Below, piece after piece: positions 1,587-52,400 of a DNA stretch of 64,000 nucleotides. The position numbers and the translations under genes are program-made. Source of the stretch: a virus; the IMG/VR virus record IMGVR_UViG_3300034071_001405, positions 4,250 to 68,249 of that record; one strand, 5' to 3'. Under the pieces are notes generated by a model. The model was not told where the DNA came from. It did not search any database and saw only the letters and a list, made by a program, of their open reading frames with translations. Each line of letters starts with the position of its first letter. Position 1 is the first letter of the stretch.

Positions 1587-4313
1587 ATGAAGATATATAA
1601 TGCACTACAGCTGAAAAACGGTGCTAAGGCTGAAAATAACAGAATGGGTACACTGACTCAACCTGTCCAATTCCTAAGTAGAAAGGAAAAAGATGATGCG
1701 TGGGGTGCTTGGTGTATGGACTGGTTAGAGATGCAAGGTCTAAAACAAATTAGAAGAAATGCAAAACGTCTTTTAAAGAACTACAAGCTTGCTAATGGTA
1801 TCATTGACAAAACAGATTACATTGTTGAAGAAAACAATGAAGCTGCAGAACTTATTGATATTTTAACAAAAGCTGATGAAAGTGCTTTTGAGCTAAAATT
1901 TTTTCCTATCATACCTAATGTTATAAATGTTCTTACTGGTGAGTTTGCAAAACGCAATGACAAAATTACTTACCGTGCAGTTGATGATATTTCATATAAT
2001 GAAATGTTAGAAGCAAAACGTGCAATGGTAGAAGAAGTTCTTGTAACAGACGCAGAAAGAAAAATGCAACAAACCATAGAAGCTATGGGATTAAATCTTG
2101 AAGATGAAGAACAAGCAGCTCAAGCTCAGCAAATGATGTCACCAGAAAATCTGAAAACATTACCTGAGATAGAAGAGTTCTTCCGCAAAGACTATCGTTC
2201 TCTTGTTGAAGAGTGGGCAACACATCAGCATGAAGTTGACGAAGAAAGGTTTACCATGAAAGAAATGGAAAACATGGCATTCAAAGACATGCTTATTTCA
2301 GACCGTGAGTTCTGGCATTTCAAAATGAATGAGGATGATTATGAGATAGAGTTGTGGAACCCTGTTCTTACTTTTTACCACAAATCTCCAGAAGCAAAAT
2401 ACATTTCACAATCTAACTGGGCCGGACGTGTAGACCTTATGACTATTGCAGACGTAGTAGATAAATATGGTTACATGATGGATGCTGACCAACTTGAATC
2501 TTTAGAAGCTATTTATCCTGTACATTCTGCAGGTTACATTATACCGGGACAACAAAATGATGGTTCTTTCTATGATGCAACACGTTCACATGAGTGGAAT
2601 ACGCAAGGGCCTTCTCTTGGTATGCGTCAATTTTTAACAGCACGTGATACTTTTGTAAATACAGGAGATGATATCATCATGCAGATTGTTAACCAATCTG
2701 AAAGTGTTCAAGACTTTAATGACGTTTCTCTTTTGAGAGTAACAAATTGCTATTGGAAGTCACAACGTATGGTTGGCCACTTGAGTAAGATTGATGAGCA
2801 AGGTCAACTTATTGACATGATTGTTGATGAGAACTATAAAGTTACAACAAAACCTATTTATGATACTACAGTACTTAAAAATAAAAATCGCGAAACACTT
2901 GTCTATGGTGAACACATTGATTGGATATGGATCAATGAAGTTTGGGGAGGTACAAAGATTGGCCCAAATAGACCAGCTTTCTTTGGTAATAATGATATAC
3001 TTGGATTCCAACCACTCTATCTAAATGTAAAACCTGTAAAGTTTCAGTTTAAAGGTGACTTTACACTGTATGGTTGCAAGTTGCCGGTTGAAGGTGCAGT
3101 GTTTACAGAACGTAATACCAAGTCAATGTCTCTTGTTGACAAGATGAAACCATATCAAATTGGTTACAACTTAGTAAACAATCAGATTGCTGACATCCTT
3201 ATTGATGAATTAGGAACTGTAATAATGCTTGACCAAAATGCTTTACCAAGACATTCAATGGGTGAAGACTGGGGTAAGAACAATTACGCAAATGCTTTTG
3301 TGGCAATGAAGAATTTTCAAATGTTGCCATTGGATACTTCCATTACAAATACAGAAAACGCATTAAACTTTCAACACTATCAAGTTTTAAATCTTGAGCA
3401 GACTAATCGTTTGATGTCTAGAATACAACTGTCTAATTATTTCAAAAGTCAATGCTTTGAAACAATTGGTATATCTCCACAACGTATGGGAGCTGTGAAT
3501 GCACAAGAAACAGCACAAGGAATTGAACAAGCAATAAACATGAGTTATTCTCAGACAGAGGTTTACTTTATTCAACACAGTGAGTATCTTATGCCACGCG
3601 TTCATCAAATGAGAACTGACCTTGCTCAATACTATAATTCAACAAAACCTTCTCTTCGTTTACAGTACATGACATCAATGGATGAGAAAGTAAACTTTGA
3701 AATAAATGGTACTGAACTTTTAGCTCGTGACTTGAACATCTTTATTTCTACAAAAGTAAATCAGCGTCAAGTAATAGAACAAATACGTGGGTTAGCTCTT
3801 TCTAATAATACTTCAGGTGCTTCTATATATGACTTAGGTAACATTATCAAAAGTGATTCAATGGCAGAGATTACACATGCAATGAAAGGCATTGAAGAAA
3901 AAACTAACAAAGCTAAACAGCAAGAAATGCAAGCAATGCAAGAAGCTGAAAAAATGCGTCAAGAAGGTGAGTCTGCTCGTTTGGAAGCTAAGTTGAGATA
4001 TGAAGCTGAACAAAAACAGTTAGATCGTGATAGTCAAGTTGAAATAGCTCAAATACGTTCAGCAGGTTATGCAGCAATGAACGACCGTGATGAGAACAAG
4101 CAAAACGACTACATAGACACTCTTGAGTATCTTGACAAAAAGAACATGAAAGAGGCTGACCAAGCTATTGCGCGTGACCGCGAGTTAAATCGTACTATTA
4201 CAGAACAGAAAAAACTTGAGCTTCAACGTCAAGAATTATTGTCAAAAGAGAGAATTGCTGAAAAACAATTGCAGATAGCACGTACAAACAAAAATAAATA
4301 TGACAAGAAGTAA
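1587..4313 (+). CDS. Portal protein (crAss-like), 908 aa
   Basis: Position after terL; size; IIPNVINVLTGEF and SLVDKMKPYQIGYN segments typical of crAss-like portals; C-terminal coiled coil. Confidence 0.88.
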   Translation: MKIYNALQLKNGAKAENNRMGTLTQPVQFLSRKEKDDAWGAWCMDWLEMQGLKQIRRNAKRLLKNYKLANGIIDKTDYIVEENNEAAELIDILTKADESAFELKFFPIIPNVINVLTGEFAKRNDKITYRAVDDISYNEMLEAKRAMVEEVLVTDAERKMQQTIEAMGLNLEDEEQAAQAQQMMSPENLKTLPEIEEFFRKDYRSLVEEWATHQHEVDEERFTMKEMENMAFKDMLISDREFWHFKMNEDDYEIELWNPVLTFYHKSPEAKYISQSNWAGRVDLMTIADVVDKYGYMMDADQLESLEAIYPVHSAGYIIPGQQNDGSFYDATRSHEWNTQGPSLGMRQFLTARDTFVNTGDDIIMQIVNQSESVQDFNDVSLLRVTNCYWKSQRMVGHLSKIDEQGQLIDMIVDENYKVTTKPIYDTTVLKNKNRETLVYGEHIDWIWINEVWGGTKIGPNRPAFFGNNDILGFQPLYLNVKPVKFQFKGDFTLYGCKLPVEGAVFTERNTKSMSLVDKMKPYQIGYNLVNNQIADILIDELGTVIMLDQNALPRHSMGEDWGKNNYANAFVAMKNFQMLPLDTSITNTENALNFQHYQVLNLEQTNRLMSRIQLSNYFKSQCFETIGISPQRMGAVNAQETAQGIEQAINMSYSQTEVYFIQHSEYLMPRVHQMRTDLAQYYNSTKPSLRLQYMTSMDEKVNFEINGTELLARDLNIFISTKVNQRQVIEQIRGLALSNNTSGASIYDLGNIIKSDSMAEITHAMKGIEEKTNKAKQQEMQAMQEAEKMRQEGESARLEAKLRYEAEQKQLDRDSQVEIAQIRSAGYAAMNDRDENKQNDYIDTLEYLDKKNMKEADQAIARDRELNRTITEQKKLELQRQELLSKERIAEKQLQIARTNKNKYDKK

Positions 4314-4353
4314 AGCGTTATAGCAATATAGTGCTAATAAATTTATTATATAC

Positions 4354-4392
4354 ATCTACAGAATGTAAATCTTCAAGGTTTATTCTGTAGAT
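4354..4392. repeat. Intergenic inverted repeat overlapping a putative promoter
   Basis: ATCTACAGAAT (4354-4364) / ATTCTGTAGAT (4382-4392) enclosing near-palindrome AAATCTT-C-AAGGTTT. Confidence 0.75.
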
Positions 4393-4436
4393 TATATATG
4401 AACAAGAACAAAAAAACAAACCAACAACATTAACTT

Positions 4437-5684
4437 ATGAGTACGGAAAACCAACAAACATCTGTGTCTAATGTAACACTTGACAACATAGATGATTTTT
4501 TACCAATGCCAGGAGCAGAAAGCATTGTTACATCAGATGGAGATGACAAACCAGGGTTCTTTGCAAAAGAACATAAAGTAGATCTTTCATTTCTTGATTC
4601 TGAAAATGAAAATTCAGCAGAAAACAAAGGTGAAGCTAAACCAAACTCTGCAACAACAGCAGCTGCATTAGCTGACCTAGATGCTGAGTTAGAAGCTGAA
4701 GACGACCAAACCATTGAAAAACAAAAAGGTGGTCGTAAGAAGATAGACAAAAGTGGTCTAGTAGAAACATTCTCAAAACTATTTGAAGATGGTTTACTTG
4801 CACCATTTGAAGATGAGAAACCGCTTGAAGAGTATTCTGTAAAAGATTGGCAGGATTTAATATCTGCTAACATAGAAGAAAAAGAAAAAGCTTTAAGAGA
4901 GCAAACACCAAAAGAGTTCTTTGAATCATTACCTCAAGAATTACAGTACGCTGCAGAATATGTAGCAAAAGGTGGAACAGACATAAAAGGTTTGTTCAGA
5001 GCACTTTCTCAAGTTGAGGAAGTACGTCAACTAGACCCTGCTGTACCAGAACATCACGAGTATATTGTAAGACAGTACATGCAAGCTACCAATTTTGGTA
5101 ATGGAGATGCTGACTTATTAGAAGACCAAGTGCAAGAATGGATTGAATCAGGCTTACTTGGAAAAAAAGCACAACAGTTTAAACCAAAACTGGACGCTAT
5201 GCAAGAAGAAGTCATTCAAGGTAAGCTAGAACAGCAAGAACAATTTCGTGCAGAACAACAAAAGAAAAAAGAAGAGTACATGGACAACATCTACAACACT
5301 TTGAAACCTGCAGAAATAAATGGTATTAAGATAGATGCAAAACGTCAAAAATTCTTATGGGAAGAATTGACATCTGTAAAATATCAAAGCATGACAGGAC
5401 GTCCAACAAACTTATTGGGCAAATTGTTAGAAGACCATCAGTTCAGCAAAACACCTAGATATGACCTGATTGCTGAAACACTTTGGTTGTTATCTGACCC
5501 AGAAGACTATAAAGAGTCTATCAGAAAACAGGCCAAGAATGAAGTAACTCAAGAAACAGTGAGAAAATTAAAAACAGAAGAGGCAAGAAAAATTGCATCA
5601 ACTGTAAAAGATGAAGAAGAAGAGGAACAAAAAACAACAAGAAAGATACCTCGCCCTGCTGCAAACATTTTCAAACGTAATTAA
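4437..5684 (+). CDS. Acidic, helical protein preceding MCP; putative scaffold/head assembly protein
   Basis: Acidic low-complexity N-terminus, coiled-coil character, position between portal and MCP. Confidence 0.6.
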   Translation: MSTENQQTSVSNVTLDNIDDFLPMPGAESIVTSDGDDKPGFFAKEHKVDLSFLDSENENSAENKGEAKPNSATTAAALADLDAELEAEDDQTIEKQKGGRKKIDKSGLVETFSKLFEDGLLAPFEDEKPLEEYSVKDWQDLISANIEEKEKALREQTPKEFFESLPQELQYAAEYVAKGGTDIKGLFRALSQVEEVRQLDPAVPEHHEYIVRQYMQATNFGNGDADLLEDQVQEWIESGLLGKKAQQFKPKLDAMQEEVIQGKLEQQEQFRAEQQKKKEEYMDNIYNTLKPAEINGIKIDAKRQKFLWEELTSVKYQSMTGRPTNLLGKLLEDHQFSKTPRYDLIAETLWLLSDPEDYKESIRKQAKNEVTQETVRKLKTEEARKIASTVKDEEEEEQKTTRKIPRPAANIFKRN

Positions 5685-5733
5685 CACAACAAACAACAAT
5701 AACACATATAATCACTTAATAACAATTTAACCT

Positions 5734-7383
5734 ATGAGCACACCTGTTTTAAACAATGGTCTCTTCTTACGCGACACTAGCTACAAAGTTAGTTCACACG
5801 TAGACAGCTACCACTTAGTCAACATGATGAAAGGCACTGAACCTATGGATTTAGGTCCGGTTGACCTTTGGGCAATGACCCAAAAAGTAGAAATGCCGCT
5901 TTACCAAATGGCATCCTTTGGTGGTAAAAACACTATTTCTGTAGACAACCCTCGTGGTGAATACAAATGGCAAACTCCAATCGTACAGGATCTTCCTTAC
6001 GTTGTGGAAGATGTTGAACCTGCAATTTTAGTACTTGGACAAGATGGTACAACTTTCAAAATCAAATTGAACAAACGTTCTTTTGGTCATGGAGACATTA
6101 TCACTTATGACAAATACAAAGGAGCAGAGTTATACATCACTGCTGAAGATATTCTTCCTTCTGGAGATGGTTTCGTTTACACTGTTCAGTTAGTGAACAA
6201 TGACAACTTAAAAGCACTTGACAAAAAGTACTTAAAACCTGGAACTAAATTCTTCAGAAAAGGTTCTGCCCGTGGAGAATATGGAGAAAGATTTTCTGAC
6301 ATTGGTGAATTGAGTGCTGGTTTCCGTGAGTACTACAACTTCGTTGGTGGTGCTGAAGCTCACGTACATTACTCAGTTTCTTCTAGAGCAGAGTTAATGA
6401 TGAAAGGTGGAATGAACGCAGATGGTACAGTTCCGGTAACTGAAATCTGGAGATCATTTGACGCTAACATATCTAGTGATCCTTCTTTAACAAACATTGA
6501 TGCAATGGTTGCTAAAATGGGTAAAGACTACATCAAAAAAGCATATGACAATGGTACATTGACTCGTTCATTTGTAACTAAAATGGAATCTGCTCACTTG
6601 ACCAAAATTGCAAACGACATTGAAACCTACTTAATGTGGGGACAAGGTGGACGTATTAAACAAGATGGTCCAGATGATTTACGTTTATCAGTGGGTCTTT
6701 GGTCACAGTTAGATAACTCTTTCAAAAGAATCTACAACAAAAGCTCATTTAGTTTGGAATTATTCCGTTCTGAGATCTTCAACTTCTACAATGGTAAAGT
6801 TGACTTCAAAGGTCCAGATCCTCAACGTCAAATAATTGTTCAAACTGGTATGGCTGGTATGAGAATGGTTAACGAAGGTATTAAAAAAGAAGCGTTTGGT
6901 ACAGCTGGTACTGGTACTTCATTGACTGCTGACATGAGTAAATCAGGTTTAGGAGCAATTAGTGGTTCTAACGCTATGGATTTAAACTTTGGTTTTGCAT
7001 TCACTAGCTACACTATTCCGTTCTTAGCAAACGTTAAGTTTGTATTGAACCCTGCTTTTGACAACGTTCACACAAATGATATTGAAAACCCAATCATTGA
7101 TGGTTTCCCATTATCTTCTTACAACTTCATTGTATTTGACATCACTGACAACACAAATGACAACATCTACTTGTTGAAATTGAAATGGGACAGTGAGTTG
7201 AAATGGTTCTACCAAAACGGAACTATGGACTACATGGGTCGTACACAAGGCTTTGCATCTTCTGGTAACTTCAACGGTTATCGTGTAATGATGACGCAAA
7301 CTATGCCTTCTATCTGGGTTAAAGACCCAACTAAAGTTCTAAAAATTGTGATGCGTAATCCTATCACAGGTGGATCATTCTAA
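5734..7383 (+). CDS. Major capsid protein, 549 aa
   Basis: Synteny (portal-scaffold-MCP), size, strongly biased codons (AAC/TTC/GGT/CGT), YLMWGQGG and GLWSQL segments, downstream hairpin. Confidence 0.88.
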   Translation: MSTPVLNNGLFLRDTSYKVSSHVDSYHLVNMMKGTEPMDLGPVDLWAMTQKVEMPLYQMASFGGKNTISVDNPRGEYKWQTPIVQDLPYVVEDVEPAILVLGQDGTTFKIKLNKRSFGHGDIITYDKYKGAELYITAEDILPSGDGFVYTVQLVNNDNLKALDKKYLKPGTKFFRKGSARGEYGERFSDIGELSAGFREYYNFVGGAEAHVHYSVSSRAELMMKGGMNADGTVPVTEIWRSFDANISSDPSLTNIDAMVAKMGKDYIKKAYDNGTLTRSFVTKMESAHLTKIANDIETYLMWGQGGRIKQDGPDDLRLSVGLWSQLDNSFKRIYNKSSFSLELFRSEIFNFYNGKVDFKGPDPQRQIIVQTGMAGMRMVNEGIKKEAFGTAGTGTSLTADMSKSGLGAISGSNAMDLNFGFAFTSYTIPFLANVKFVLNPAFDNVHTNDIENPIIDGFPLSSYNFIVFDITDNTNDNIYLLKLKWDSELKWFYQNGTMDYMGRTQGFASSGNFNGYRVMMTQTMPSIWVKDPTKVLKIVMRNPITGGSF

Positions 7384-7403
7384 GATCTACTGAAGGCCTT
7401 GCA

Positions 7404-7434
7404 AACTAGGGGGTGTAAAAACCTCCTAGTTATT
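7404..7434 (+). terminator. Hairpin after MCP (terminator or mRNA stabiliser)
   Basis: AACTAGGGGGT-GTAAAA-ACCTCCTAGTT 11-bp stem (one G.U); only a weak U-tract follows. Confidence 0.6.
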
Positions 7435-7506
7435 GCATCAAAGAACTCCACCCCCTCCCCTGTCAAAGTAGTACTTTGGCAATATGCCTGGGATAAAACC
7501 CAGGTA

Positions 7507-7561
7507 CTCCTGAGAAGCAACAACCGTGACGTGGTTCAGGAGCTTTAAACTAAGAGTTGCT
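7507..7561 (+). ncRNA. Candidate HDV-like (theta/minimal delta-like) ribozyme-fold pseudoknot
   Basis: P1 CTCCTGA/TCAGGAG, P2 AGCAAC/GTTGCT, P3 ACC/GGT, 7-nt L3 GTGACGT, CTAA junction. Deviates from consensus at +1 (C) and in L3. Confidence 0.35.
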
Positions 7562-7598
7562 AAAACAGAACAAGAACAAACCAAACCAACAAAATCAA

Positions 7599-8615
7599 AT
7601 GGAAGTATCAATTATTGAGAAGCACCAAGCTTTTAAAAAATCAAGCACTTTAGCAGTGCGACCGTATGTAGACAATGCAACAGCAAACATGGGCCTTGAA
7701 AAATACCAGATGGTAGTTTTTGAAGGAGTAGTTCATGAGGAGCAATTAGCATGTTTAGAGTACAATGGAATCAAACGTTATGTAACTGGTCTAAATGAAT
7801 TTGCACCAGAAGTTAAAATGTTATCTGAAGATGACAGAGAAGCAGTTGTAAAACAGATACGTATTACAGTATCACAACTTGAAAAAGAACTAGCTTCAAA
7901 CGTTGTTGACCCTGATGACAAAGAATTCTGGAACAAGGTTAGATTATTAAGACCAGACAATGATGACTTCTGGGGTAAAATTGTAATGCGTTTTGGCAAT
8001 GAGCCTATTTTCTTAGACCCATCCAAAGACCCTTATGACCTTATAAAACTTAAAGCAATTGAGGCAGGTGGATTTTCTACAGTATGTAAATCATTGGAAG
8101 AAGCGCGTGTACAACCAGTTCCACCAAAGTTTTACTTAGATAAGTTTGAAGAAACTGCTTCAATAAGAACTGAGGTTAAAAAATTACGTAACAAAGCTTT
8201 GGCTGAATTACAGAAGTTTTTTGACAAGAACTCAAACAAACTGTTCTATGTATGTAAAGTTATTGATGCAAACAGCACTCAATATAAAAAATCAACTCCA
8301 CTTGACATCTTGTATGACAACATGGATAAGTACATAAATGGTGAAACAGTTGACAAAGACAAACGCAAAACTGCACAACGTTTCTTAGAAATTGCAGCTT
8401 TGGATATGGAAACTTTAAAATTACGCTCTTTAGTTAAAGATGCTAATTTTTACAAAATAATTGCAACACGTGGTGATGGTTTTATATATCACATGAAGAG
8501 TACCTCAATGATGGGTAAAAATTCATCTGATGTTGTAGAATTCTTAAAGAACCCTTTGAATGAAGAAGTTCTTTCAGACATCACAAAGAATGTAGAAACT
8601 TTTTGGAATCAATAA
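7599..8615 (+). CDS. Conserved crAss-like protein downstream of MCP (gene 75-like)
   Basis: Long ORF; ATG 7599 after an A-rich leader is preferred over the tracked TTG 7557; synteny. Confidence 0.6.
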   Translation: MEVSIIEKHQAFKKSSTLAVRPYVDNATANMGLEKYQMVVFEGVVHEEQLACLEYNGIKRYVTGLNEFAPEVKMLSEDDREAVVKQIRITVSQLEKELASNVVDPDDKEFWNKVRLLRPDNDDFWGKIVMRFGNEPIFLDPSKDPYDLIKLKAIEAGGFSTVCKSLEEARVQPVPPKFYLDKFEETASIRTEVKKLRNKALAELQKFFDKNSNKLFYVCKVIDANSTQYKKSTPLDILYDNMDKYINGETVDKDKRKTAQRFLEIAALDMETLKLRSLVKDANFYKIIATRGDGFIYHMKSTSMMGKNSSDVVEFLKNPLNEEVLSDITKNVETFWNQ

Positions 8616-8627
8616 TTACATCCTAAC

Positions 8628-8663
8628 GCATATAAAATGGTCAATATCAGCCATTTTATATGC
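8628..8663. repeat. Perfect 13-bp inverted repeat
   Basis: GCATATAAAATGG-N10-CCATTTTATATGC in the intergenic gap. Confidence 0.8.
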
Positions 8664-8680
8664 AATAAGATATAAACACT

Positions 8681-9379
8681 ATGAATAATAATCTGCTACA
8701 AATCAAAATTAAAGAGCGTCTAAACAAGCTTGCATCTCTAGATTATGACAATCTTGAGTGTTGGCAGATTGTAGAAGCTTTTAACAAAGCACAATTAGAA
8801 TGGGTGAGACGTCAAGTTCATGGTAACAACTTGCGTAAAGAAGGAGATGAATCAACAAAGATGTTAATTGATGATTTGCAAATATTACTTGTAGAACAAA
8901 ACATAACTGGTACTAATCAACCTAAGTTTTTACAAACAGCTTTATTACCAAATGATTATCTATATTTTAAAAAGTTATCTGCAGAATCAAATACAGAGTG
9001 TTGTCCTAACAGATTTTTAGTTTGTTACCTAGCTGAAGTTGCTGATACAGATAATCTTTTAGTAGATCTTTTCAGAAAACCTAGCGCAGAGTGGGGAGAA
9101 ACTTTCTTTACACTACAAGGTAACCGCATTAGAATTTATCACAATGATGAGTTTGAAATTCAGAATCCTAAGTTGACATACTATCGCAATCCAAGAACAA
9201 TAAGTTTTGCGGGTTGTGTTAACCCTGCAGACGGAACTGCTACAGTGAATGTAGAATCTGAATTCAAAGATGACATTGTTGAGTTAATTGTTGATGAAAC
9301 AGCTGCAATACTTGCAGGTGACATGGAACTATTTAACCAATATCAAAGAGGTAAAACTAACGCTCAAAACAATAACTAA
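8681..9379 (+). CDS. Ring/head-tail connector protein (gene 74-like)
   Basis: 232 aa; FNKAQ, LPNDYL, LTYYRNP and SEF...IVELIVD segments characteristic of ring/adaptor proteins; synteny. Confidence 0.65.
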   Translation: MNNNLLQIKIKERLNKLASLDYDNLECWQIVEAFNKAQLEWVRRQVHGNNLRKEGDESTKMLIDDLQILLVEQNITGTNQPKFLQTALLPNDYLYFKKLSAESNTECCPNRFLVCYLAEVADTDNLLVDLFRKPSAEWGETFFTLQGNRIRIYHNDEFEIQNPKLTYYRNPRTISFAGCVNPADGTATVNVESEFKDDIVELIVDETAAILAGDMELFNQYQRGKTNAQNNN

Positions 9380-9491
9380 AAAAAATTGACAAAAACTAAC
9401 ACATAAATTTTTTATTCTGTAGAAGAATGCTTAAATTATTAATAAACACAAAACACTAAACTTATATTTTTAACCCCTAATCTTTTAAAAA

Positions 9492-11099
9492 ATGGCTTAT
9501 TTTCCACACGCTTTCCAGAAAATGTTAGTTGGAACCACAGGTTTCAATTCAACTCCAGGCAGCACTCTTACTTTGACTGCTGGCCAAATCGGTGTTATTA
9601 GCGCTGCTAACAACACAATTCAAAATTTAGCAACTACTCCAACGTATGCTGCTACTCCTTTAGTTTATGTTGCACAAGGTAGTTTTTACGCTACAGACAA
9701 GATTGGTCCTTTTCACGGTGGATACAAAGAAACTGTAAAAACAAAAGGAATCAATCCAAAGTATGTTAGTGCATTCTACGTAACACAACCTTCTGCACCA
9801 ATTCAAACTGTAGTTCAAGTTTCATCAGGTCTTAACTGTACATCAGTTGCTTGTGACACTACTTACAGATTGCGTTTAGACATTAAAGGTTCTCCTGCGT
9901 TGAGATTCTTAACTCACAACTTGTACAACACTTTGGATGCATACAGCGGATGTTGCGATGCAAACAAAAGCAATGTTGACCCAACATCTGTACTAGCTTT
10001 ATGGTTAGATCAAATCAACAACAGTCCTTACTTAAACGAGTTTGTTTCTGCTAGACTTTGGGCTAAAGTTAACCCTGCTGTAACTGTAACTGCTACTGCA
10101 ACTGCTGCTTCTTCATTGACAGTTTCTGCAAGAGATTTTATTACAGCTGGTAACAGAGTAAGCTTCACTCCAACAACTGCAACTTCTGCAACTGGTTGTA
10201 CAATCACAGGTAACACATTAACTATTGGTACTGCAACTAACACGATTTTCTCTGTTGGTCAAGTAATCTCTGGTACTGGTGTTGCTGCAGGTACTAAAAT
10301 TGTTAGATTGGTTACAGGTGGTGGTGGTACAGGTAGTACATTTTTGGTTGATAAACCACAAGAAGTAGCTTCTACTACAATCAGTTCTACAAGTCCTGTA
10401 ATTGCATTCGTTGCTGCAGCTCACACTCCTGCAACTGGTGCCGGTACTGTAGCTTTAGTAGCTGCTCAAACTTTAGGTGTTCCAACAACTACTGCAATTG
10501 GTGTTGTTACAACAACTTCTGTAACTGTAAAATTCTTTGCTCCACACAGCACTGCATCTTCTTACACAGCATTTACTGGTGCAACTGCTCCTGATACTAC
10601 TGAGCCAATCTTAGAATTAACTGGTGCATACACTGATACTACATTTGGTGATTGTTCATTCTCTCCAATGGACCATGTTGAATACCAACCAATTGAAATC
10701 TATGCGTCTATAGTAGATGATTCTGGTGAAACATGTGTTAGTTCTTGCTTCGGTGCAACTGAAGTTCAAAGCACTTACCAAGGTAAAGGATTTGGTGAAA
10801 CTTTAGTTAGAGAGTTAATCTTATCTAAAAGATATGCTCAAGAGCCTTGGCAACAAGATCCACGCATGCGTGAGGTATTAAAAGATACAACTCTTACTGA
10901 GTTAACTCGTACAAGTTCATACTTTGTATACCACATATTACACAGTGTTCCACGTAAAAGCAATCCGTCTTCAACAATGGATTCAGATCAATACTTGGTA
11001 AAAATTGTTGTTAACAGTAGAAATACCAACTTTGAAACTTATTTGAACACATTGTTGACCAGCTCTGGTAACCACGTTCAATTGACAGTTCAACTTTAA
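9492..11099 (+). CDS. Putative auxiliary capsid protein with Thr/Ala-rich insertion
   Basis: MCP-like codon bias, own upstream leader and downstream terminator; position matches the crAss-like auxiliary capsid gene. Confidence 0.55.
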   Translation: MAYFPHAFQKMLVGTTGFNSTPGSTLTLTAGQIGVISAANNTIQNLATTPTYAATPLVYVAQGSFYATDKIGPFHGGYKETVKTKGINPKYVSAFYVTQPSAPIQTVVQVSSGLNCTSVACDTTYRLRLDIKGSPALRFLTHNLYNTLDAYSGCCDANKSNVDPTSVLALWLDQINNSPYLNEFVSARLWAKVNPAVTVTATATAASSLTVSARDFITAGNRVSFTPTTATSATGCTITGNTLTIGTATNTIFSVGQVISGTGVAAGTKIVRLVTGGGGTGSTFLVDKPQEVASTTISSTSPVIAFVAAAHTPATGAGTVALVAAQTLGVPTTTAIGVVTTTSVTVKFFAPHSTASSYTAFTGATAPDTTEPILELTGAYTDTTFGDCSFSPMDHVEYQPIEIYASIVDDSGETCVSSCFGATEVQSTYQGKGFGETLVRELILSKRYAQEPWQQDPRMREVLKDTTLTELTRTSSYFVYHILHSVPRKSNPSSTMDSDQYLVKIVVNSRNTNFETYLNTLLTSSGNHVQLTVQL

Positions 11100-11788: not shown

Positions 11789-11808
11789 CATAATAAATCA
11801 AATAAAAT

Positions 11809-11958
11809 ATGTGCCCAAATTGCAATACCCATTTATCATGCGGATGTCAAAAACGTACCGCTTCAGACGGAAAACAAGTTTGTAACAACTGCCTTGTCCA
11901 GTATGAGGCAGAAATAGCTAAAGCAAAAGAAAACTTGAATAATCAAACACAACAGTAA
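11809..11958 (+). CDS. Small Cys-rich protein, 49 aa (absent from ORF track)
   Basis: MCPNCNTHLSCGCQKRTASDGKQVCNNC...; A-rich leader; TAATG stop/start coupling to the next gene. Confidence 0.75.
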   Translation: MCPNCNTHLSCGCQKRTASDGKQVCNNCLVQYEAEIAKAKENLNNQTQQ

Positions 11959-12185
11959 TGTATTACAATCCTACAGTTCGTATTAACAAACTTTTTGCAG
12001 ATGCTGTTTTTTCTAATTACAGAAAAAAAAGATATGGTCTAAAAAAATGTAAAACTACATATGAACCTGAGTACCTTAATGACATGAGAGAACTTTTAAA
12101 ACGTAATACAGAATTGAAACAGTGCAACAAAGTACTTGGTAGTTGTAGCATTTTAAAAATTGAAGAAACCATAAAAACATTATAA
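11958..12185 (+). CDS. Hypothetical protein, 75 aa (possible tail hub subunit)
   Basis: Translationally coupled on both sides by TAATG overlaps. Confidence 0.65.
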   Translation: MYYNPTVRINKLFADAVFSNYRKKRYGLKKCKTTYEPEYLNDMRELLKRNTELKQCNKVLGSCSILKIEETIKTL

Positions 12186-13753
12186 TGATTCCTGTAAGTA
12201 CAAACACAACAACAAACCACAACGACGCATGTACACCTTTGTCATCTTCTTGTGTTATTTGGAATGGTCCAGATATTCCTTGCATAGACTTATGTAGAGG
12301 TGATTCCATTGAAAAGGTTGTTTATAATCTTGCAACTGTTTTATGTGAAATTACAGAAGGAGTTCTTGACGTAACAACATTGGATTTTAAATGTTTAGTA
12401 TTATCAGGTCAAAGCGAACCAACTACACTTCTTGCAACAATACAGAAAATTATTGACAAGGTTTGTGAAACACCTACTAGTGGTGGCACAGGTGGAGTAG
12501 TTGTTCCACCAACTCCTATTCCTTTACCAACCTGTTTATATTATACACAAGGTGGTGACACAATTACACAACTTTTACCAAATGATTATAGCCAATATTT
12601 AGCAACTAAAATCTGTGCAATACTATCAACTATAACCACTGTCAATTTAGCAATTTCTACATTAAACACAAGATTGACAACTTTGGAAAATACTGTAGAC
12701 GCAATTGAAAGTGGAGGAACTAGTGGATTAACAATTCAAACACAATGTGCTAGCGGACCAACTCCAGGTCAAACACTGCCAATACAAACAGCATTTTTTA
12801 ACTTTGAAGAAAAATTTTGTGAATTAAGAACTTTATTGGGAAGTAACACTGCACTATCTACTGCAATCGCAAGAGAATGTGCAGGACTTGATAGTGCTCC
12901 ACAAATAAGTAATCAATTAGCAATAATGTCTGCACTATCAGGATGGGTTAGTACACCAACTAATCTTTCTCAGACAATAGTTAACATGTGGATTACACTT
13001 TGTGATATGCGTTCTGCTCTACAATCAATTGTTGCAGCAGGAGCATTACCATGTGCAATTGTATCTCCTTACAACGTACAAATTACAAATTTGACAACAA
13101 ACGGTTGTAAAGTTACTTGGAATGCTCCTCCTATATCGCTAACACAAAATCCTACAGGATACACTATAAATGTTTTTGAATGGAATGGTACAACAACTGT
13201 TGGTACAGCTATTGCAACTGTAGCAAAAACATTTCCATCAATTGACCATACATTTTCAAGTTTAGGGACTGCAGGTAAAACTTATATTGTTTATGTTACT
13301 GCACAATATAGTTGTGGAGAATCTTTACAAGCTTCTGCAATTGGTAAAACTCGTATTAGTCCTGTGACACATTTGATAACTGTTTCTGATACTACAAAAT
13401 CTAGTCCTGCAATTACTACAGTAACATGTAGTTCTGTTGTTTATCCTGCTGTTGAAAGATTAACCACAATTACACTTGTTGATCCTACAACAGGAACTCC
13501 TGTAACAAATATAGGTGCAACAATAGATGTAGTTTTAAGATATGGATTTATTGGAGATTGTGTTACAGCAGCACAACAAAATATTACAATAAGTATCCTT
13601 ACAGGACAAAGCACAGGAACGTATAATTATCTAGGTCAAAAACCAAAACTTTGTGCATCTCCTCCATGTACTCCAGAATATCAATCATATACTTGTGGTG
13701 TTTCTGTAAGTACTTCATCAGCGGCATTTGCACCATCAGTAACAATCTGTTAA
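12185..13753 (+). CDS. Cys/Thr-rich virion fibre or decoration protein with FN3-like domain
   Basis: Cys-rich N-terminal domain, coiled coil (INTRLTTLE-like), FN3-like segment (PYNVQI...VTWNAP...GYTI...YIVYVTA). Confidence 0.6.
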   Translation: MIPVSTNTTTNHNDACTPLSSSCVIWNGPDIPCIDLCRGDSIEKVVYNLATVLCEITEGVLDVTTLDFKCLVLSGQSEPTTLLATIQKIIDKVCETPTSGGTGGVVVPPTPIPLPTCLYYTQGGDTITQLLPNDYSQYLATKICAILSTITTVNLAISTLNTRLTTLENTVDAIESGGTSGLTIQTQCASGPTPGQTLPIQTAFFNFEEKFCELRTLLGSNTALSTAIARECAGLDSAPQISNQLAIMSALSGWVSTPTNLSQTIVNMWITLCDMRSALQSIVAAGALPCAIVSPYNVQITNLTTNGCKVTWNAPPISLTQNPTGYTINVFEWNGTTTVGTAIATVAKTFPSIDHTFSSLGTAGKTYIVYVTAQYSCGESLQASAIGKTRISPVTHLITVSDTTKSSPAITTVTCSSVVYPAVERLTTITLVDPTTGTPVTNIGATIDVVLRYGFIGDCVTAAQQNITISILTGQSTGTYNYLGQKPKLCASPPCTPEYQSYTCGVSVSTSSAAFAPSVTIC

Positions 13754-32843: not shown

Positions 32844-35837
32844 ATGCAAAAAATACGCATAACCAAAACACCAAAAACAGGAGACCAACGTGATTTTTCA
32901 CTGGTTCACAAACAAGCACATTATATCAATGATGGCGAAACAGTAAATCCTGTAAAAAACACCATGGGTGCAGTTCCCATAGAACAAGCTAACATAGAAG
33001 TAGAAGGAGGAGAAACAGTTGTAGGTGATGTTAACCGCGATGGTTTCTTAGAACACATGACTTTTGTTGGCAAGCGTCACTCACAAGGTGGAATGCCTGT
33101 AAACATACCTGAAGGTTCTTTTATCTTCTCAGATACTAAAAAGCTTAAAATCAAGGATAAAGAAATACTTGGTAAAGTGTTTGGCTTGTCTGCAAAAAAA
33201 GGAGGTTATACACCTGCTGAAATTGCAAAGAAGTATCAAATAAACAACTACATTCATGATTTGAAAAGTGAAAGCACTGACCCTATTACTAAACGTTCTG
33301 CAACACAGATGTTAGCGAACAACATGGAAAAGTTAGGAATGCTTGCTTTAGTACAAGAATCAATGAAAGGATTTCCTGATGGCATACCTGCTATTGCTGA
33401 ATCTGTCATGGCCGGTTTACAAGGAGGTGGTGCTGAAGAAATGCCACAAGGTAAATTTGGTGGACTTATGAAGGCTCAAGCTGGTGGGACTTTACTTCCA
33501 GGTACATCTTTAAATATTAACGGTAAGACCGTTAAAGTCAAATCTGTTTACAGTGGTATAACAGGTAAAGACTGGGTTAAATTTGAAAAACCAATAATTT
33601 TAAAAAACTCAAGAGGAGAAAATGTTAAAATTGAAGAGTTAACTTTAGAAGACATTCAAAAAGCGCAATCACAAGATGTTCAACTTGGGGCTGACAAAGG
33701 TTGGTTTAACAGCGGTTACAGAAACATTCAATCATTGAGTGGAAGTGACGTAAGTGCTGCTCCTTTATCAGGCATAGAAAAACTTGGTGATAAAATTTTT
33801 AATTATGGATATCCAACTGTAGCTTTAAGAATTGGAACATTGCCAAAGCAATCAACATATAAAGTAGGAGACATTCTTTATAAAAATAACGTAAAGTACA
33901 AAGTTGTAGATCCTGCTGTACATAATTATTCAGGAAAACCATTGTTAGAATTGGAAGAATTGGATGATCCAAATACATTTATTCAAAGTTGGGGAAATGC
34001 TACAGGAAAAAGAAAAACAGTTTCTTATGATCAGATTGGAACTTTCACGTCATTAACCAAATCAGGTGTATCAAATACAAGTCAAAAAGAAGAGAAAGTT
34101 CCCAATGATTTAAATCAACAGTCAATATACACAAATAAACAAAAGGCACAAACAAGAGATGGTGAACCATTAACTGTTGGACAATATAAAGATAACAAAT
34201 GGTACAACGTGTACACAGGTCTACCTGTTGACTGGAAGCCACAAGGTTTTGAAACTGATACAAATAAAGCTAAACCTGCTGTAAAACAAACAGCTACAAA
34301 ACCTGCAACTCCAAAACCAGCAGTAAAACCTAAAACGTATTCTGAGGTTTTATCTTTATTTGCAATGGGTGGTCAATTACCAGAATATCAACAAGGTGCA
34401 GAAGCTAAAACTACCCAGCCTGAAACAGAAACTCTTGCTGGCACATACACACTACCAGATGGTAAAGTAGCTTATGTTTATTACACAGCAACAGAAAAGA
34501 TTGTAAAAGATGTAAACGGTAACGTTCAAGATCGTGCACCAAGAACTGATAAAGCAGCATATGCTCCACACAAAGGTGATGTAAACCCTTCAACAAATCC
34601 TATCACTGGTCAAAAAGAAACAGGATGGAACAAGTCTAAATATACTGCTGACCAAATAGATGCACTTGCTAGAGAAAGAGGATATACTGGTCCTAAAAAT
34701 AACAAAGCTCTTCAACAATGGATTTTGTCCAAACCAGAATTTTCAAAAGTTGTAGAGGAATTGCATGCCAAATACAAAATTCCAGCAGCAGGTATAAAAG
34801 ATGATGGTTTCTGGGGTGTTAGATGGGATGATATTTTAGAAAAGATTCCTTCAGTACCTAGCACAACTACAACACCTGCACCTGTGACGGGAGCTCAACA
34901 ACCTGTAACTCCTAAAGAAGATTTTGTAGTTCCTGAACCTGCAATGCCACAAGCTCCTAAAACTGGGCCATGGTGGTTACAAGACATTACCAACTTTGTG
35001 GGAACTCTGACAGATGATATAAATCGTTATGAGCCAACACAAGGAAGAGTAGCATTACAAACTCCAGGTTATGTAACTCTTGACCCTACCAGACGTTTAG
35101 CTGCAAATCAAGAGCAGTTTGCTAGAATGCAACAAATGACAGAAAATACTGTTGACGGTAATGTTGGATTAGCATCAATGACTGGTACACAAGGACAATC
35201 ATTTGCAAATGCTGCCAATGTTCTTGGAGATGTTGAAAATGCAAATGTTGGAATTGTTAACCAAGCATACAATACAAATGCACAGATAATGAATCAAGAA
35301 GCTGCTGCAAATGAAGTAGGTAGACAAAAATATGTTGAGGACATGGCTACATTAAATCAACAGTTGGACAACTCTGAACAGCAAAATAAATGGCGTCAAA
35401 TTGCTGCTTTCAACAATGGTACTACAAACTGGTTTAGAAAAAAACAAATGGAACAAATATTGTTTCCAGATGTGTATGTTGACCCAATCTTAGGAGATGT
35501 ATCTATTGACCCTAGTGGAAGAAGTTTATTTGGACCTGACACATATTCACCAAGTTATATGGATAACAGAGGTGGTAATAACATGATGTCAGGTAATGCA
35601 GGAATTGAAGAATGGAATGCAATAGTTCAAGAAGCAACACCTATAATGGGGCCAGAAGAAGCTAAAAAATATGCTACAATGTATATGGGTAATCAAATGA
35701 GAGCACAAAATAGAGCAGTTACAGGCTTGACTCCACGTCAACAATATAATCAAATGGCAATTCAAGGATTAACATTACCTTTGCCTCCTAGAGAATTTGG
35801 TGGTGTGGTATATTTTCCTTGGTCAGATATAGAATAA
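32844..35837 (+). CDS. Putative cargo protein (cargo protein 1-like), 997 aa
   Basis: N-terminal ANIEVEGGETV...GKRHSQGG...FIFSD block; Gln/Asn-rich helical C-terminus; possible peptidoglycan-binding-like LQQW...DGFWG. Confidence 0.6.
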   Translation: MQKIRITKTPKTGDQRDFSLVHKQAHYINDGETVNPVKNTMGAVPIEQANIEVEGGETVVGDVNRDGFLEHMTFVGKRHSQGGMPVNIPEGSFIFSDTKKLKIKDKEILGKVFGLSAKKGGYTPAEIAKKYQINNYIHDLKSESTDPITKRSATQMLANNMEKLGMLALVQESMKGFPDGIPAIAESVMAGLQGGGAEEMPQGKFGGLMKAQAGGTLLPGTSLNINGKTVKVKSVYSGITGKDWVKFEKPIILKNSRGENVKIEELTLEDIQKAQSQDVQLGADKGWFNSGYRNIQSLSGSDVSAAPLSGIEKLGDKIFNYGYPTVALRIGTLPKQSTYKVGDILYKNNVKYKVVDPAVHNYSGKPLLELEELDDPNTFIQSWGNATGKRKTVSYDQIGTFTSLTKSGVSNTSQKEEKVPNDLNQQSIYTNKQKAQTRDGEPLTVGQYKDNKWYNVYTGLPVDWKPQGFETDTNKAKPAVKQTATKPATPKPAVKPKTYSEVLSLFAMGGQLPEYQQGAEAKTTQPETETLAGTYTLPDGKVAYVYYTATEKIVKDVNGNVQDRAPRTDKAAYAPHKGDVNPSTNPITGQKETGWNKSKYTADQIDALARERGYTGPKNNKALQQWILSKPEFSKVVEELHAKYKIPAAGIKDDGFWGVRWDDILEKIPSVPSTTTTPAPVTGAQQPVTPKEDFVVPEPAMPQAPKTGPWWLQDITNFVGTLTDDINRYEPTQGRVALQTPGYVTLDPTRRLAANQEQFARMQQMTENTVDGNVGLASMTGTQGQSFANAANVLGDVENANVGIVNQAYNTNAQIMNQEAAANEVGRQKYVEDMATLNQQLDNSEQQNKWRQIAAFNNGTTNWFRKKQMEQILFPDVYVDPILGDVSIDPSGRSLFGPDTYSPSYMDNRGGNNMMSGNAGIEEWNAIVQEATPIMGPEEAKKYATMYMGNQMRAQNRAVTGLTPRQQYNQMAIQGLTLPLPPREFGGVVYFPWSDIE

Positions 35838-49400: not shown

Positions 49401-52400
49401 AACACACATAGATAAGTTAACTGACCTTCAAGTAATAAACAAAAGAACAACTCCAAAATTTGTTAAAAAAACAGTACTTGACCCTGCAACAGGACTACCT
49501 GCAAAAGTAAATGGTAAAATAGAATACTATTATGGTCCAAAAACAGATGCTGAAGGAAATGTTGAAAGTCCTTTTGAATATTACGATTCTTCATTGATTG
49601 CCCCATTGTTAAAAAAAGACAGCAGACCTTCTGTTAACATTATTGACAGTTATCAGAAAGTAGGTGTTGGTAGTTTTAATCAAGTTGGCGGTGTACAATC
49701 TGGATTTTCTAATCTTGAAGGTTTAGTACAAGACGCGTTCTTTAACTTCTGGGCTAACTCGCTTGTGTTTAATGATTTGCTTGATGGTGACTCAGCAATG
49801 AACGTAAAGGATTCTGTTGATTATTTCAAACGTCAAAAGAAGAATTTAGCAACTGGTAGTAATATGAAACAAGGCACACACCGTGTTGCTGTAATGAATA
49901 CTATTACAGGTTACATAAACAACAGATATCCTGAGTATGGGCCTTTCTATTCAGTTGATGAAATAAAAGAGTTTTTTGCAGATAGAACTGATATTTCTGA
50001 TGAGGTAAAAGAAGAAGTCATAAATGCTTATGGTACTAAAGGAATGATGCATTACATTTTTGATGGACAAAGTACATCTTCTATAATGCACCAAATGGAC
50101 ATGTATGAAACTCTTGGTAGATTAACTCCTGAAATTAAAGAATTGCTTATTGAAAAACATTATCGCAAACTAAATGAAGAAGAAGTAAAGTTGATGCAAA
50201 GCTATAAAATAGTAAACAACCCTAAGAAAACTGTGACTGCATCACGTAACTCATATCACAAACAATCTGAAAACTACATTGATCGTAATGATGTGAGCTA
50301 TATGGAAATACCAAAAGACATTCTTAGTCAGGGTAGTGAAGCTATAAAAGATTACAGAAATCAACTTCATGATGTTTTTAAAGGACTGTACAATGAAATA
50401 TATACTCTGAGAAAAAAGATACAAGATGCTAAGTCTATTGGTGAAGACCCATCAGAATATGTTGATGCTATTCAGAAAAAAACAATTACTATTCACTCGT
50501 TCTATAAGCCAATGGCTCATCGTGAAATATTGCACAACTTGTTAAATGCAATGGAGTATCATCAAATAGATCAGCTAATGGACACTGAAGCGTCTAAAAA
50601 TGCTACAATGCTACCTATAGATTATTTTGCAGAAAGCAAAGAACTTGGAGCTACTAAACCATATATTGACTTAGCGTTTTCTTCTTTTGAAGTAGAAAAC
50701 AGATACAAATACTTGCAAGTAGAAACTTCAGGTGTCAAAGACATTGTCAAATTTTCTGTTCAAAGTAAAGCTTTGATAGCTGCGGATTTGATAAATTTAT
50801 TGGATATTGCTAACGCTTCAAATAAAGAAGTAACAGAAAGTGACATAAAAGCAATAGAAAAAGTAGCAGAAGCTTTAGTTGAATATCAAGAAACACTGAA
50901 AGAATTAGGTGTATCTAACTTAGCCAACTTGAAAACTATATTAAGAAAAGATGGTGACTTTGATATTGGAAAAGTGTTTAACCTTATAAGAGAATCTTTA
51001 GAAAGTCAAGGGGCCCCTTCTTCTACATTAAAGTTGTTTGATGTTACTCCAGAAGGAACACCGGTGCATTCACCTAACCTTCCTGGTATTCGTAATATGT
51101 TAGAATACTACTTCTTCTCACAATACTCAAAACATATTACTGATGAAAAAGGTTCAGGATTCAAACACATCCACATGTCATCACTAGGTTACAATGTATT
51201 AACTGATGAAAATGGAAAAACCTTATTAGATAAAGAAGGTAACATAGTTACAACAGATATATACAGACGTAATCCTGCAAAGTATCCAAATGCAAAATTT
51301 AGACCGCTAGGTGTTACAACAGAAGTAAAAGATGGAATAACTACATACTATGTAGAAGCTATAGTTCCTCTACCGTTTTTCAAAAGTGATGAGCATAGAG
51401 CTTTTTACATGAAGAACTTATCAAAAATGTTTGGTGTACGTATTCCAACTGAGGATAAACGTTCAATGATTGCAATGAAAGTTGTAGACTTTATTGACAG
51501 TTCAAACCTTACTGGTGTCATTGTACCTCACATTGCACACTTACTTGCAGGTTCTGACTTTGACGTTGATGCGCTCTATGGTCAAACATACGCTCACTAT
51601 TTTAATGCAGATAATAAACCTGTTCTTTATGGTGATTACAGTGCATATAAATCTGAGTCAATTGGTAAATTTGTAGAGTTTGTTCAATACATGGCCAGTG
51701 ACAAAGACATGAAAAAAGCAGTTGATGCTGAAAGAGAAAAGATTAGTGAAATAAAAGTTGATGACTATGTTGGTTCTACAAATGCAAGACTTCTTGCTGG
51801 TTATGTTTCTGAGAGACTAGTTGATGATGAAGACACGTTAAGAGAATTTGATGCAATACTAGATGCATTTGAAAAATATGGTTTACCTGTAAACTTAGAA
51901 AACTTTGTAGCTAAACCTGAGTATGCTAAGTCAGTACGTCCTGTATATCAAAACGCAAACCTTGCTGCCAAACTGAAAATCCTAACAAATGAAGCTGTGT
52001 ACAAATTCTTGTACATAAGTGAACGTTCATCAGTTGACCGTTTTATCAGCATTGCTCAAGCATTTGGAAATGAAGTAGAAGAGTATTCAGGTCAACATAA
52101 TCAGTACACTATTGATGGCGTTGTTACTACAAAGAAAACAACCAGCATGAATAAAGATGGTATTGGAATTACAGCAAGAATAAACAAGTTTCTTGCATTA
52201 GCATCACAATATGGTCTAGAGTTAAAAAGTGAACAAGTTATATGGGCTTTTCAAAATGTTACATCTACTGAAGGTGACAACATAGATTTTCAAATGAAAA
52301 AGTACAATACCTTTGGTACACTTAATGACAATGATGAACGTGTTATTGAACTAATAGGTAATATACTTGGGATGTTTGCTGATGGTGCTAAGAAACCTAT

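Follow-up and report, generated by a model that had tools for sequence, protein, structure and literature searches.

A Conserved Delta-Fold RNA in the Leader of a Gene Downstream of the Capsid Gene in crAss-Like Phages, a Candidate Variant of the HDV-Like Ribozymes

The stretch of viral DNA analysed here (hereafter, the window) comprises 64,000 of the 68,249 bases of the IMG/VR record IMGVR_UViG_3300034071_001405, a record about 56% complete, and carries a compact RNA element in the spacer between the gene of a crAss-type major capsid protein (MCP) and a downstream gene designated orf338. It was found that this element adopts the nested double pseudoknot of HDV-like ribozymes (HDV, hepatitis delta virus), and that this architecture is established as a conserved RNA structure by the pairing and the compensatory changes observed in two separate alignments and across 40 distinct versions of the element. 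We hold it very likely that the element functions as a conserved delta-fold RNA. The balance of the sequence evidence leans slightly towards a variant HDV-like ribozyme, which would cleave itself 5′ of C7507 and separate the capsid message from that of orf338. It would probably represent a new HDV-like variant and not a canonical member, because the pair at the proposed cut site is invariably C:G, where the canonical criterion is a G.U wobble.

The Element in the Capsid Gene-orf338 Spacer

The spacer between the capsid gene and orf338 extends from 7384 to 7598 (215 nt) and contains the element. A sequence-only reading of the window had described there three consecutive hairpins followed by helices P1, P2 and P3 and the loop L3, and all of them were found in the sequence, as listed below. 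The same reading called the region GC-rich, which held only in relative terms, the G+C content being 45-49% against 32-43% in the flanks.

7400-7403/7434-7437 (outer stem) and 7405-7414/7421-7430, + strand: hairpin 1, bipartite, soon after the MCP stop at 7383
7446-7460, + strand: C-rich box CTCCACCCCCTCCCC, unpaired in the centroid fold
7461-7469/7473-7481, + strand: hairpin 2, 9 bp, variable in sequence among relatives
7485-7492/7499-7506, + strand: hairpin 3, 8 bp, adjoining P1; A7506 is the proposed -1 nucleotide
7507-7513/7536-7542, + strand: P1, 7 bp, CTCCTGA/TCAGGAG; C7507 is the proposed +1 nucleotide
7516-7521/7556-7561, + strand: P2, 6 bp, the pseudoknot, AGCAAC/GTTGCT, a perfect complement
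7523-7525/7533-7535, + strand: P3, 3 bp, ACC/GGT
7526-7532, + strand: L3, 7 nt, GTGACGT; G7528 is the proposed P1.1 partner of C7543
7543-7555, + strand: junction CTTTAAACTAAGA, which takes the place of P4 in the minimal form
within this junction, + strand: C7543-U7544, the P1.1 side, and C7550-U-A-A, a J4/2-like motif in which C7550 is the candidate general acid

The core in the window is thus a nested double pseudoknot lacking P4, with hairpin 3 upstream, spanning 7485-7561 on the + strand. When the spacer was folded with ViennaRNA, four hairpins were obtained, with a minimum free energy of -61.7 kcal/mol (z = -4.05) that none of 200 shuffled sequences equalled. The fourth of these hairpins corresponded to P1 enclosing P3, while P2 was missing because pseudoknots cannot appear in a fold of this kind. 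The spacer at 11789-12184 gave no significant structure (z = -1.72).

Taken by itself, the arrangement of helices in a single sequence is weak evidence. A sequence-free descriptor (P1 of 7 bp, P2 of 6 bp, P3 of 3 bp, L3 of 7 nt and CNRA before P2′) recognised four sites on both strands of the window against 1.3 per random window, an expectation drawn from ten first-order Markov windows that gave 13 sites in total, so that the bare topology is within chance expectation. The three other sites, at 13521-13588 (+), 35461-35546 (+) and 50574-50624 (-), were inside long open reading frames (ORFs) and were taken as chance matches. What raises the element above chance is its conservation and covariation in relatives.

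Conservation and Covariation Among Relatives

Relatives were gathered through the capsid protein, a search that matched at least 599 related viral loci, of which the best 80 were recovered. Four of them (L025, L032, L071 and L076) were excluded as too short, which left 76 loci with at least 150 nt past the capsid stop; the same core was present within 260 nt in 26 of these, giving 27 instances with the window. Wider collections were then searched with a 20-nt IUPAC pattern covering P3-L3-P3′-P1′, which matched 71 viral loci, 70 bacterial or archaeal genome loci and at least 119 metagenome loci. The matches were subjected to a strict test demanding all seven P1 pairs, all six P2 pairs and CYRR before P2′, with the following outcome.

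Viral contigs: 70 parsed matches, 50 passing
Metagenome contigs: 95 parsed, among the matches listed, 31 passing
Genome contigs: 52 parsed, 1 passing

The genome matches served as a natural control because they were mostly chance pattern matches in high-G+C coding sequence. Their sole pass, L172, resides on a contig of low G+C from a Lachnospiraceae genome and is a true member. The wider scan yielded 41 distinct cores, from which L215 was set aside as chance-like and devoid of the junction motifs. The 40 remaining versions comprised 10 sets of P1 pairs, 18 sets of P2 pairs and two sets of P3 pairs.

A first MAFFT alignment of 36 versions (A1) misaligned P4 and the P2′ half, and for this reason the minimal and the P4-bearing versions were aligned separately. 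In the gapless alignment of 18 minimal versions (A2), 99.0% of the cells were paired, against 29-49% when the pairing was slid out of place, and changes on both sides occurred in all six P2 pairs and in two P1 pairs. The covariation score reached 0.347, compared with 0.134 in shuffled alignments, and none of 500 shuffles attained it. In the alignment of 29 P4-type sequences (A4), 96.4% of the cells were paired and four P1 pairs were compensatory; the first P3 pair was A:U in 19 sequences and G:C in 10, with every cell paired. Most of the unpaired P1 cells in A4 derive from four rows (L112, L245, L015 and L017) that were retained although they stood one column out of register in P1. A further alignment built with a covariance model (A3) wrongly fitted the model's 3′ half to P4 and served the finding of copies only, not the counting of pairs; with the covariance model R1, a single copy was located in the window (83.4 bits), as in the record as a whole.

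The strand order that the sequence-only reading had compared to HDV-like ribozymes is accordingly preserved through compensatory changes in P1, P2 and P3, and the covariation of these helices in homologous intergenic regions, whose absence that reading had named among the grounds for abandoning it, is present. Over the 40 versions, G.U accounted for 13 of 640 pairs, which fits an RNA read from the + strand only. The junction hairpin P4 was found to be optional, being absent from 16 versions and 3-8 bp long in the other 24, often with a GNRA-type loop.

Invariant Positions of the Core

In all 40 versions P1 was 7 bp long and its first pair was C:G, so the C at the proposed +1 position, already noted in the window in place of the expected G, proved invariant. 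A scan that placed no constraint on the last two P1′ positions recovered AG in 63 of 64 loci; in the exception, L341, they read GG, which replaces U:A by C:G at the second pair and leaves the first pair as C:G.

The nucleotides that follow P1′ were CU in 38 of the 40 versions and AU in two, the latter being those with U as the partner in L3. The candidate P1.1 pair, which had been proposed for the window in a swapped orientation (G7528:C7543), was G:C in 27 and U:A in two of the 29 aligned P4-type sequences, a change that amounts to one evolutionary event. The second P1.1 position was U.U. In L3, position 6 was G in 40/40, and position 1 was U in 31 versions and G in nine, the window among these. 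Across the unbiased set of 27 capsid-anchored instances, L3 varied at positions 1, 3, 4 and 5 and was constant at 2, 6 and 7. The placement of C7550 in a CUAA-type junction was upheld: a C-Y-R-R motif, C7550-U-A-A in the window, lay 4-6 nt ahead of P2′ in every one of the 40 versions. The nucleotide at -1 was A in 29, U in six, C in five and G in none.

Position of the Element Relative to Neighbouring Genes

Every long ORF of the window is on the + strand. Downstream of the element, all ORFs of at least 150 aa have this orientation, the genes are very long, and the operon exceeds 55 kb. The interval 5500-9600 contained no terminator-like site on the + strand, and the window no tRNA, in agreement with the earlier remark that none lies upstream of the element. 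The neighbouring features are the following.

1587-4313, + strand: portal gene (PHROG 6547)
between the portal and major capsid genes: a gene of 415 aa with no assigned function
5734-7383, + strand: crAss-type MCP gene (Pfam Crass_capsid PF23898, E = 2.3e-32; PHROG 11589, major head protein)
7562-7598, + strand: A-rich leader with a conserved AACCAAC at 7584-7590 and, judged by eye, no Shine-Dalgarno sequence
7599-8615, + strand: orf338, 338 aa, with its ATG at 7599, a strongly conserved phage protein

The nearest deposited phages, which share 22-27% capsid identity, are a Leptolyngbya phage, Cellulophaga phages and gut crAss-like phages, and the DNA at 6900-8100 gave no similarity match to deposited phage genomes. 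The conservation of orf338, with 20 homologues at 62-86% identity, equals that of the capsid protein. No name for it was obtained from the PHROG, Pfam, PDB-sequence and INPHARED searches or from tblastn against deposited phages; its clusters in a protein atlas are viral and labelled just "hypothetical protein", and an AlphaFold2 model built with 20 aligned homologues was poor, with a mean predicted local distance difference test (pLDDT) score of 51.6.

The element had been placed as a 3′ appendage of the capsid gene, and this assignment did not survive the comparison of distances. The start of the element was 88-129 nt from the orf338-homologue match, while 76-539 nt separated the capsid stop from the element, and some phages had extra small genes inserted between the two. 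Since the distance to orf338 is nearly constant and that to the capsid gene is variable, the element is part of the orf338 leader and not of the 3′ end of the capsid gene.

The three upstream hairpins had also been counted as part of the element, which proved right for hairpin 3 and wrong for hairpins 1 and 2. A hairpin ended 0-2 nt before P1 in 36 of the 40 versions, mostly leaving one unpaired nucleotide, and this was also seen in unrelated lineages; such an arrangement fits the formation of a defined and protected 3′ end. Under a looser criterion (a hairpin within 7 nt, at most -6 kcal/mol), 38/40 versions qualified, against 81/400 positions taken at random from these loci. The C-rich box and hairpins 1 and 2 were confined to the crAss-like group.

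Hairpin 1 is terminator-like in its look; the U tract is absent in the phage of the window, and an equivalent G+C-rich hairpin is present in relatives. A T run follows this equivalent, as in a classical terminator, in L015-L017, L030, L035-L037, L057, L061, L070 and L080. Because the T run is found in some relatives and not in the window, read-through past the capsid gene may differ between phages.

At the position of the C-rich box, most of the relatives L001-L033 carried CTCCACCTCC, a conservation that was judged by eye. The box was situated about 45-60 nt upstream of P1, and a CCTCCC-like version was observed in loci bearing the second RNA described below (motif 2). We take the box to be similar to the 3′ end of 16S rRNA. 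It was also considered as an alternative pairing partner of P1′ and rejected, as no covariation with P1′ was apparent by eye.

Occurrence Outside the crAss-Like Group

Genes of crAss-like phages flanked the element in 65 of 70 viral pattern loci. The element without crAss genes was found in one lineage comprising L095, L172, L266, L289 and L333, which had small phage ORFs and a DNA invertase/integrase nearby, as well as in L111, L248 and L269, in L141 and L227, in L252 and in L293. In L293, two copies (3750-3804 and 4446-4507) were placed about 700 nt apart within a region, 3267-4637, that had no ORF of at least 60 aa on either strand; if both copies cleave, a discrete non-coding RNA would be set free. 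In L111, L269, L141, L227 and L293, it was also observed that the 20-60 nt upstream of the element held the word (A/G)GGTTG(A/T/C)AATTCCT, then a hairpin and then AAAAT just before P1, and this shared word may represent the 3′ portion of a conserved RNA located upstream.

Eleven non-crAss loci were scanned against Rfam at relaxed thresholds. Matches to twister-P1 and/or RAGATH-1-hammerhead models on the strand of the element were obtained in five of them, all scoring under the Rfam gathering score.

L111, 4680-4749 and 6730-6785, strand of the element: ribozyme matches, 61.8 bits with E = 1.3e-11 and a second with E = 4.4e-5
L266, 3636-3716, 4223-4323, 4951-5042 and 7115-7169, strand of the element: twister (E = 9.3e-7) and two hammerhead-type matches
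L095, 582-661, 1696-1775 and 3193-3247, strand of the element: twister (E = 4.5e-6 and E = 3e-3) and one hammerhead-type match
L333, 2001-2067, 4587-4675 and 5780-5858, strand of the element: ribozyme matches
L269, 2373-2434, strand of the element: ribozyme match

These arrays of twister and hammerhead matches between short phage ORFs suggest ribozyme-punctuated operons. The tendency of bacterial self-cleaving ribozymes to cluster has been described, and it was this clustering that led to twister-sister, pistol and hatchet (PMC6765202, PMC5737381).

A Second RNA at the Same Position

In more distant capsid relatives, a different conserved RNA, designated motif 2, occupied the interval from the C-rich box to the orf338 homologue. 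The loci concerned include L045, L047, L049, L052, L056, L058, L060, L065, L067-L069, L075 and L079. Motif 2 had an outer stem of 7 bp and two hairpins, one of them optional and closed by a TGATCA loop, the other with a loop of 7 nt that pairs with a 5′ segment. In an alignment of 10 sequences (A6), 99.5% of the cells were paired, eight pairs were compensatory and none of 500 shuffles reached the score; no Rfam match was obtained for motif 2.

L047, 4202-4264; L049, 4192-4257; L056, 4198-4263: examples of motif 2, with seven others
L045, L052, L075 and L041: short forms of motif 2

Twister and hammerhead are known to replace each other at one position (PMC6765202). Because two folds swap in the same way ahead of orf338, it is possible, by analogy, that motif 2 is a ribozyme candidate too, either a new ribozyme or an analogue of one. 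The word AACCAAC or AAACCAA, without a Shine-Dalgarno sequence, was seen in the orf338 leaders of the HDV-like and the motif 2 groups alike.

Proposed Mechanism and Alternative Explanations

In the mechanism proposed here, the late polycistronic transcript would continue past the capsid gene, as the lack of a + strand terminator-like site implies, and its RNA would fold co-transcriptionally, with hairpin 3 shielding the folding of the ribozyme from upstream sequence. Judging by the fold, the self-cut would take place between A7506 and C7507, with C7550 of the C-U-A-A junction acting as the general acid and a divalent metal ion located near L3. The capsid mRNA would then end in hairpin 3 plus one nucleotide, bearing a 2′,3′-cyclic phosphate, and the mRNA of orf338 and the later genes would start with a 5′-OH on the compact ribozyme fold. 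In this way, the two messages would be uncoupled in stability and, as a result, in protein yield. The role in setting the MCP-to-downstream gene stoichiometry that the sequence-only reading had put forward is conjectural.

A broader proposal, which we advance tentatively and with a little less than even confidence, is that the element typifies a distinct subclass of the delta fold. Its active site would rest on a C(+1):G pair that never varies, with a reversed P1.1 and no G.U. Several phage lineages that are unrelated to one another, crAss-like and Lachnospiraceae-associated ones among them, would employ it for cutting polycistronic messages where genes adjoin, in exchange with twister, hammerhead and at least one more fold, motif 2, and a hairpin would form the end of the upstream message. 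No earlier description of a C:G variant of the delta fold was found in the main texts of the open literature searched.

Several observations weigh against self-cleavage by an HDV-like ribozyme. In descriptions of HDV ribozymes, G at +1 and the G.U wobble count as required or essential (PMC8495972), and the cut-site pair of the element was C:G in every version and never the G.U of HDV. An antigenomic HDV ribozyme with a G23/G28 mutation was reported to cleave 470-fold more slowly (PMC3386971), and position 1 of L3 in the window is G, as in this slow mutant, although the context differs. The sequence-only reading had suggested a search of the Infernal type with HDV-like descriptors, and no ribozyme model of Rfam 15, the HDV family included, matched the window at 7300-7700 with E ≤ 10. 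No Rfam family (twister, hammerhead, pistol, hatchet and twister-sister included) matched the element in the loci of 14 relatives either. A scan of the whole window with Rfam returned nothing at the gathering threshold and a single snoRNA-like noise match at E ≤ 1. In addition, P4-bearing versions have 2-4 nt between P4 and the invariant C. As P3, L3 and part of P1′ were set by the search pattern, their apparent constancy is partly by design. Known ribozymes were not found in the six other non-crAss loci, nor in nine crAss-like loci or the window. Proximity to ribozymes does not prove cleavage, and several RNA motifs near twister and hammerhead are not known to self-cleave.

The explanation that best withstands comparison with the ribozyme is a non-catalytic structured leader, acting as a barrier to degradation or processing or by binding a protein, of phage or host, through which orf338 translation is controlled. 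We consider it unlikely, albeit with appreciable weight. The conservation of the structure and its fixed distance from the start codon speak for it, the missing G.U wobble at the cut site and the silence of the Rfam ribozyme models agree with it, and the other structured RNA found at the same place in relatives could equally be an operator. However, the fold is also found ahead of unrelated genes in several other phage lineages, including that of the Lachnospiraceae genome, and for this reason an operator recognised by one protein fits poorly; moreover, twister or hammerhead matches stand alongside the element in 5/11 non-crAss loci, and the invariant nucleotides coincide with HDV active-site positions.

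An element that modifies RNA polymerase, by processive antitermination of the late operon, would account for the location of the element at the start of a stretch of more than 55 kb of very long genes on one strand with no + strand terminator-like site nearby. This explanation is highly improbable, since the element resembles no Rfam family, shows no tie to terminators and in other lineages occurs between short ORFs and in multiple copies, as in L293. A ligand sensor of the riboswitch type controlling the downstream gene, which we rate as marginally more improbable still, would be in keeping with a compact pseudoknot in a 5′ leader whose loop and junction nucleotides are conserved; nevertheless, no expression platform was seen, neither a terminator nor pairing to the start site, the A-rich linker of 35-50 nt is unpaired, the downstream genes are unrelated phage genes without a metabolic theme, and no Rfam match was obtained. 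Finally, a functionless chance arrangement of complementary words in the spacer, conceivable from the rate at which the sequence-free descriptor matches random 64-kb sequence, has a virtually negligible probability and is refuted by the covariation in A2 and A4, by the retention of all helices through compensatory changes in 40 distinct versions, and by the strict-test control, in which the bacterial-genome pattern matches lacked the structure and the only one of 52 to pass was a true member.

Significance

If the element cleaves, the G.U wobble at the cut site is not a universal need of the delta fold, which bears on the debated role of this pair in holding the catalytic metal ion, and structure searches demanding G at +1 have overlooked a whole branch of the family. 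Cleavage would also provide a concrete job for small ribozymes in double-stranded DNA phages, namely the cutting of long late transcripts between the capsid gene, whose expression is very high, and the genes next to it; the role of bacterial and phage self-cleaving ribozymes is described as largely unknown (PMC6765202). If the element does not cleave, it is still a widespread phage RNA with strong covariation, in which a ribozyme fold is copied to serve some other end.

Comparison with Known Ribozymes

Pistol, twister, hatchet and a tRNA-like substrate of RNase P were ruled out as identities for the element by topology and by the lack of model matches. The hatchet ribozyme resembles it in being cut at the extreme 5′ end, beside a first P1 pair that is Watson-Crick (U1-A19), and differs in having four stems with internal loops and no double pseudoknot, besides giving no Rfam match. 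The twister and hammerhead arrays of the other lineages have in common with the element an intergenic location and the same strand; however, their fold is another one, and none was found in the phage of the window.

With the HDV-like ribozymes, the element shares the strand order P1-P2-P3-L3-P3′-P1′-(P1.1)-(P4)-J4/2-P2′, with P1 crossing P2 and P3 lying inside P1, as well as a 7-bp P1, a 3-bp P3 and a 7-nt L3, and the whole fold is downstream of the proposed cut. It departs from them in the orientation of the candidate P1.1, which is reversed (G in L3 and C after P1′) and followed by U.U. In the antigenomic HDV ribozyme, U23 and G28 form a pair in L3 and C76-U77 belong to J4/2, and the counterpart of U23/G28 in the genomic ribozyme is U20/G25 (PMC3386971). 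U at position 1 (31/40) and G at position 6 (40/40) of L3 match U23/G28, a likeness partly fixed by the search pattern, and the C followed by U that opens the J4/2-like motif is similar to C76-U77. The preference of HDV at -1 follows the order A > C > U, with G poor (PMC8495972), and the -1 nucleotide of the element is never G.

The minimal HDV-like and theta ribozymes of gut Caudoviricetes have P4 reduced or absent, and in theta ribozymes a tRNA constitutes the stable helix upstream of the cut, the cleavage-site nucleotide being given as G1 (PMC10879173). The element differs from theta in that its upstream helix is a simple hairpin and no tRNA, in that +1 is not G, and in that the conserved C, which in theta is strictly the first position of J4/2, does not hold this place in P4-bearing versions. 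The theta hallmark of a cut within about 5 nt of a tRNA 3′ end was not found, and the tRNAs of other loci were kilobases away. On the other hand, the element shares with the minimal HDV-like and theta group a dispensable P4, an occurrence in phages of Bacteroidota and Bacillota, an intergenic position on the sense strand and a stable helix immediately upstream of the cut site. A further relative in structure is the HDV ribozyme of Ackermannviridae phages, a fast-cleaving canonical family member whose P1.1 is U:A over U:U (PMC13635239). Like the element, it is phage-borne, and its P1.1, a Watson-Crick pair stacked on U:U, is of the same make as the candidate P1.1 of L015 and L017 (U:A and U.U) and of the window (G:C and U.U).

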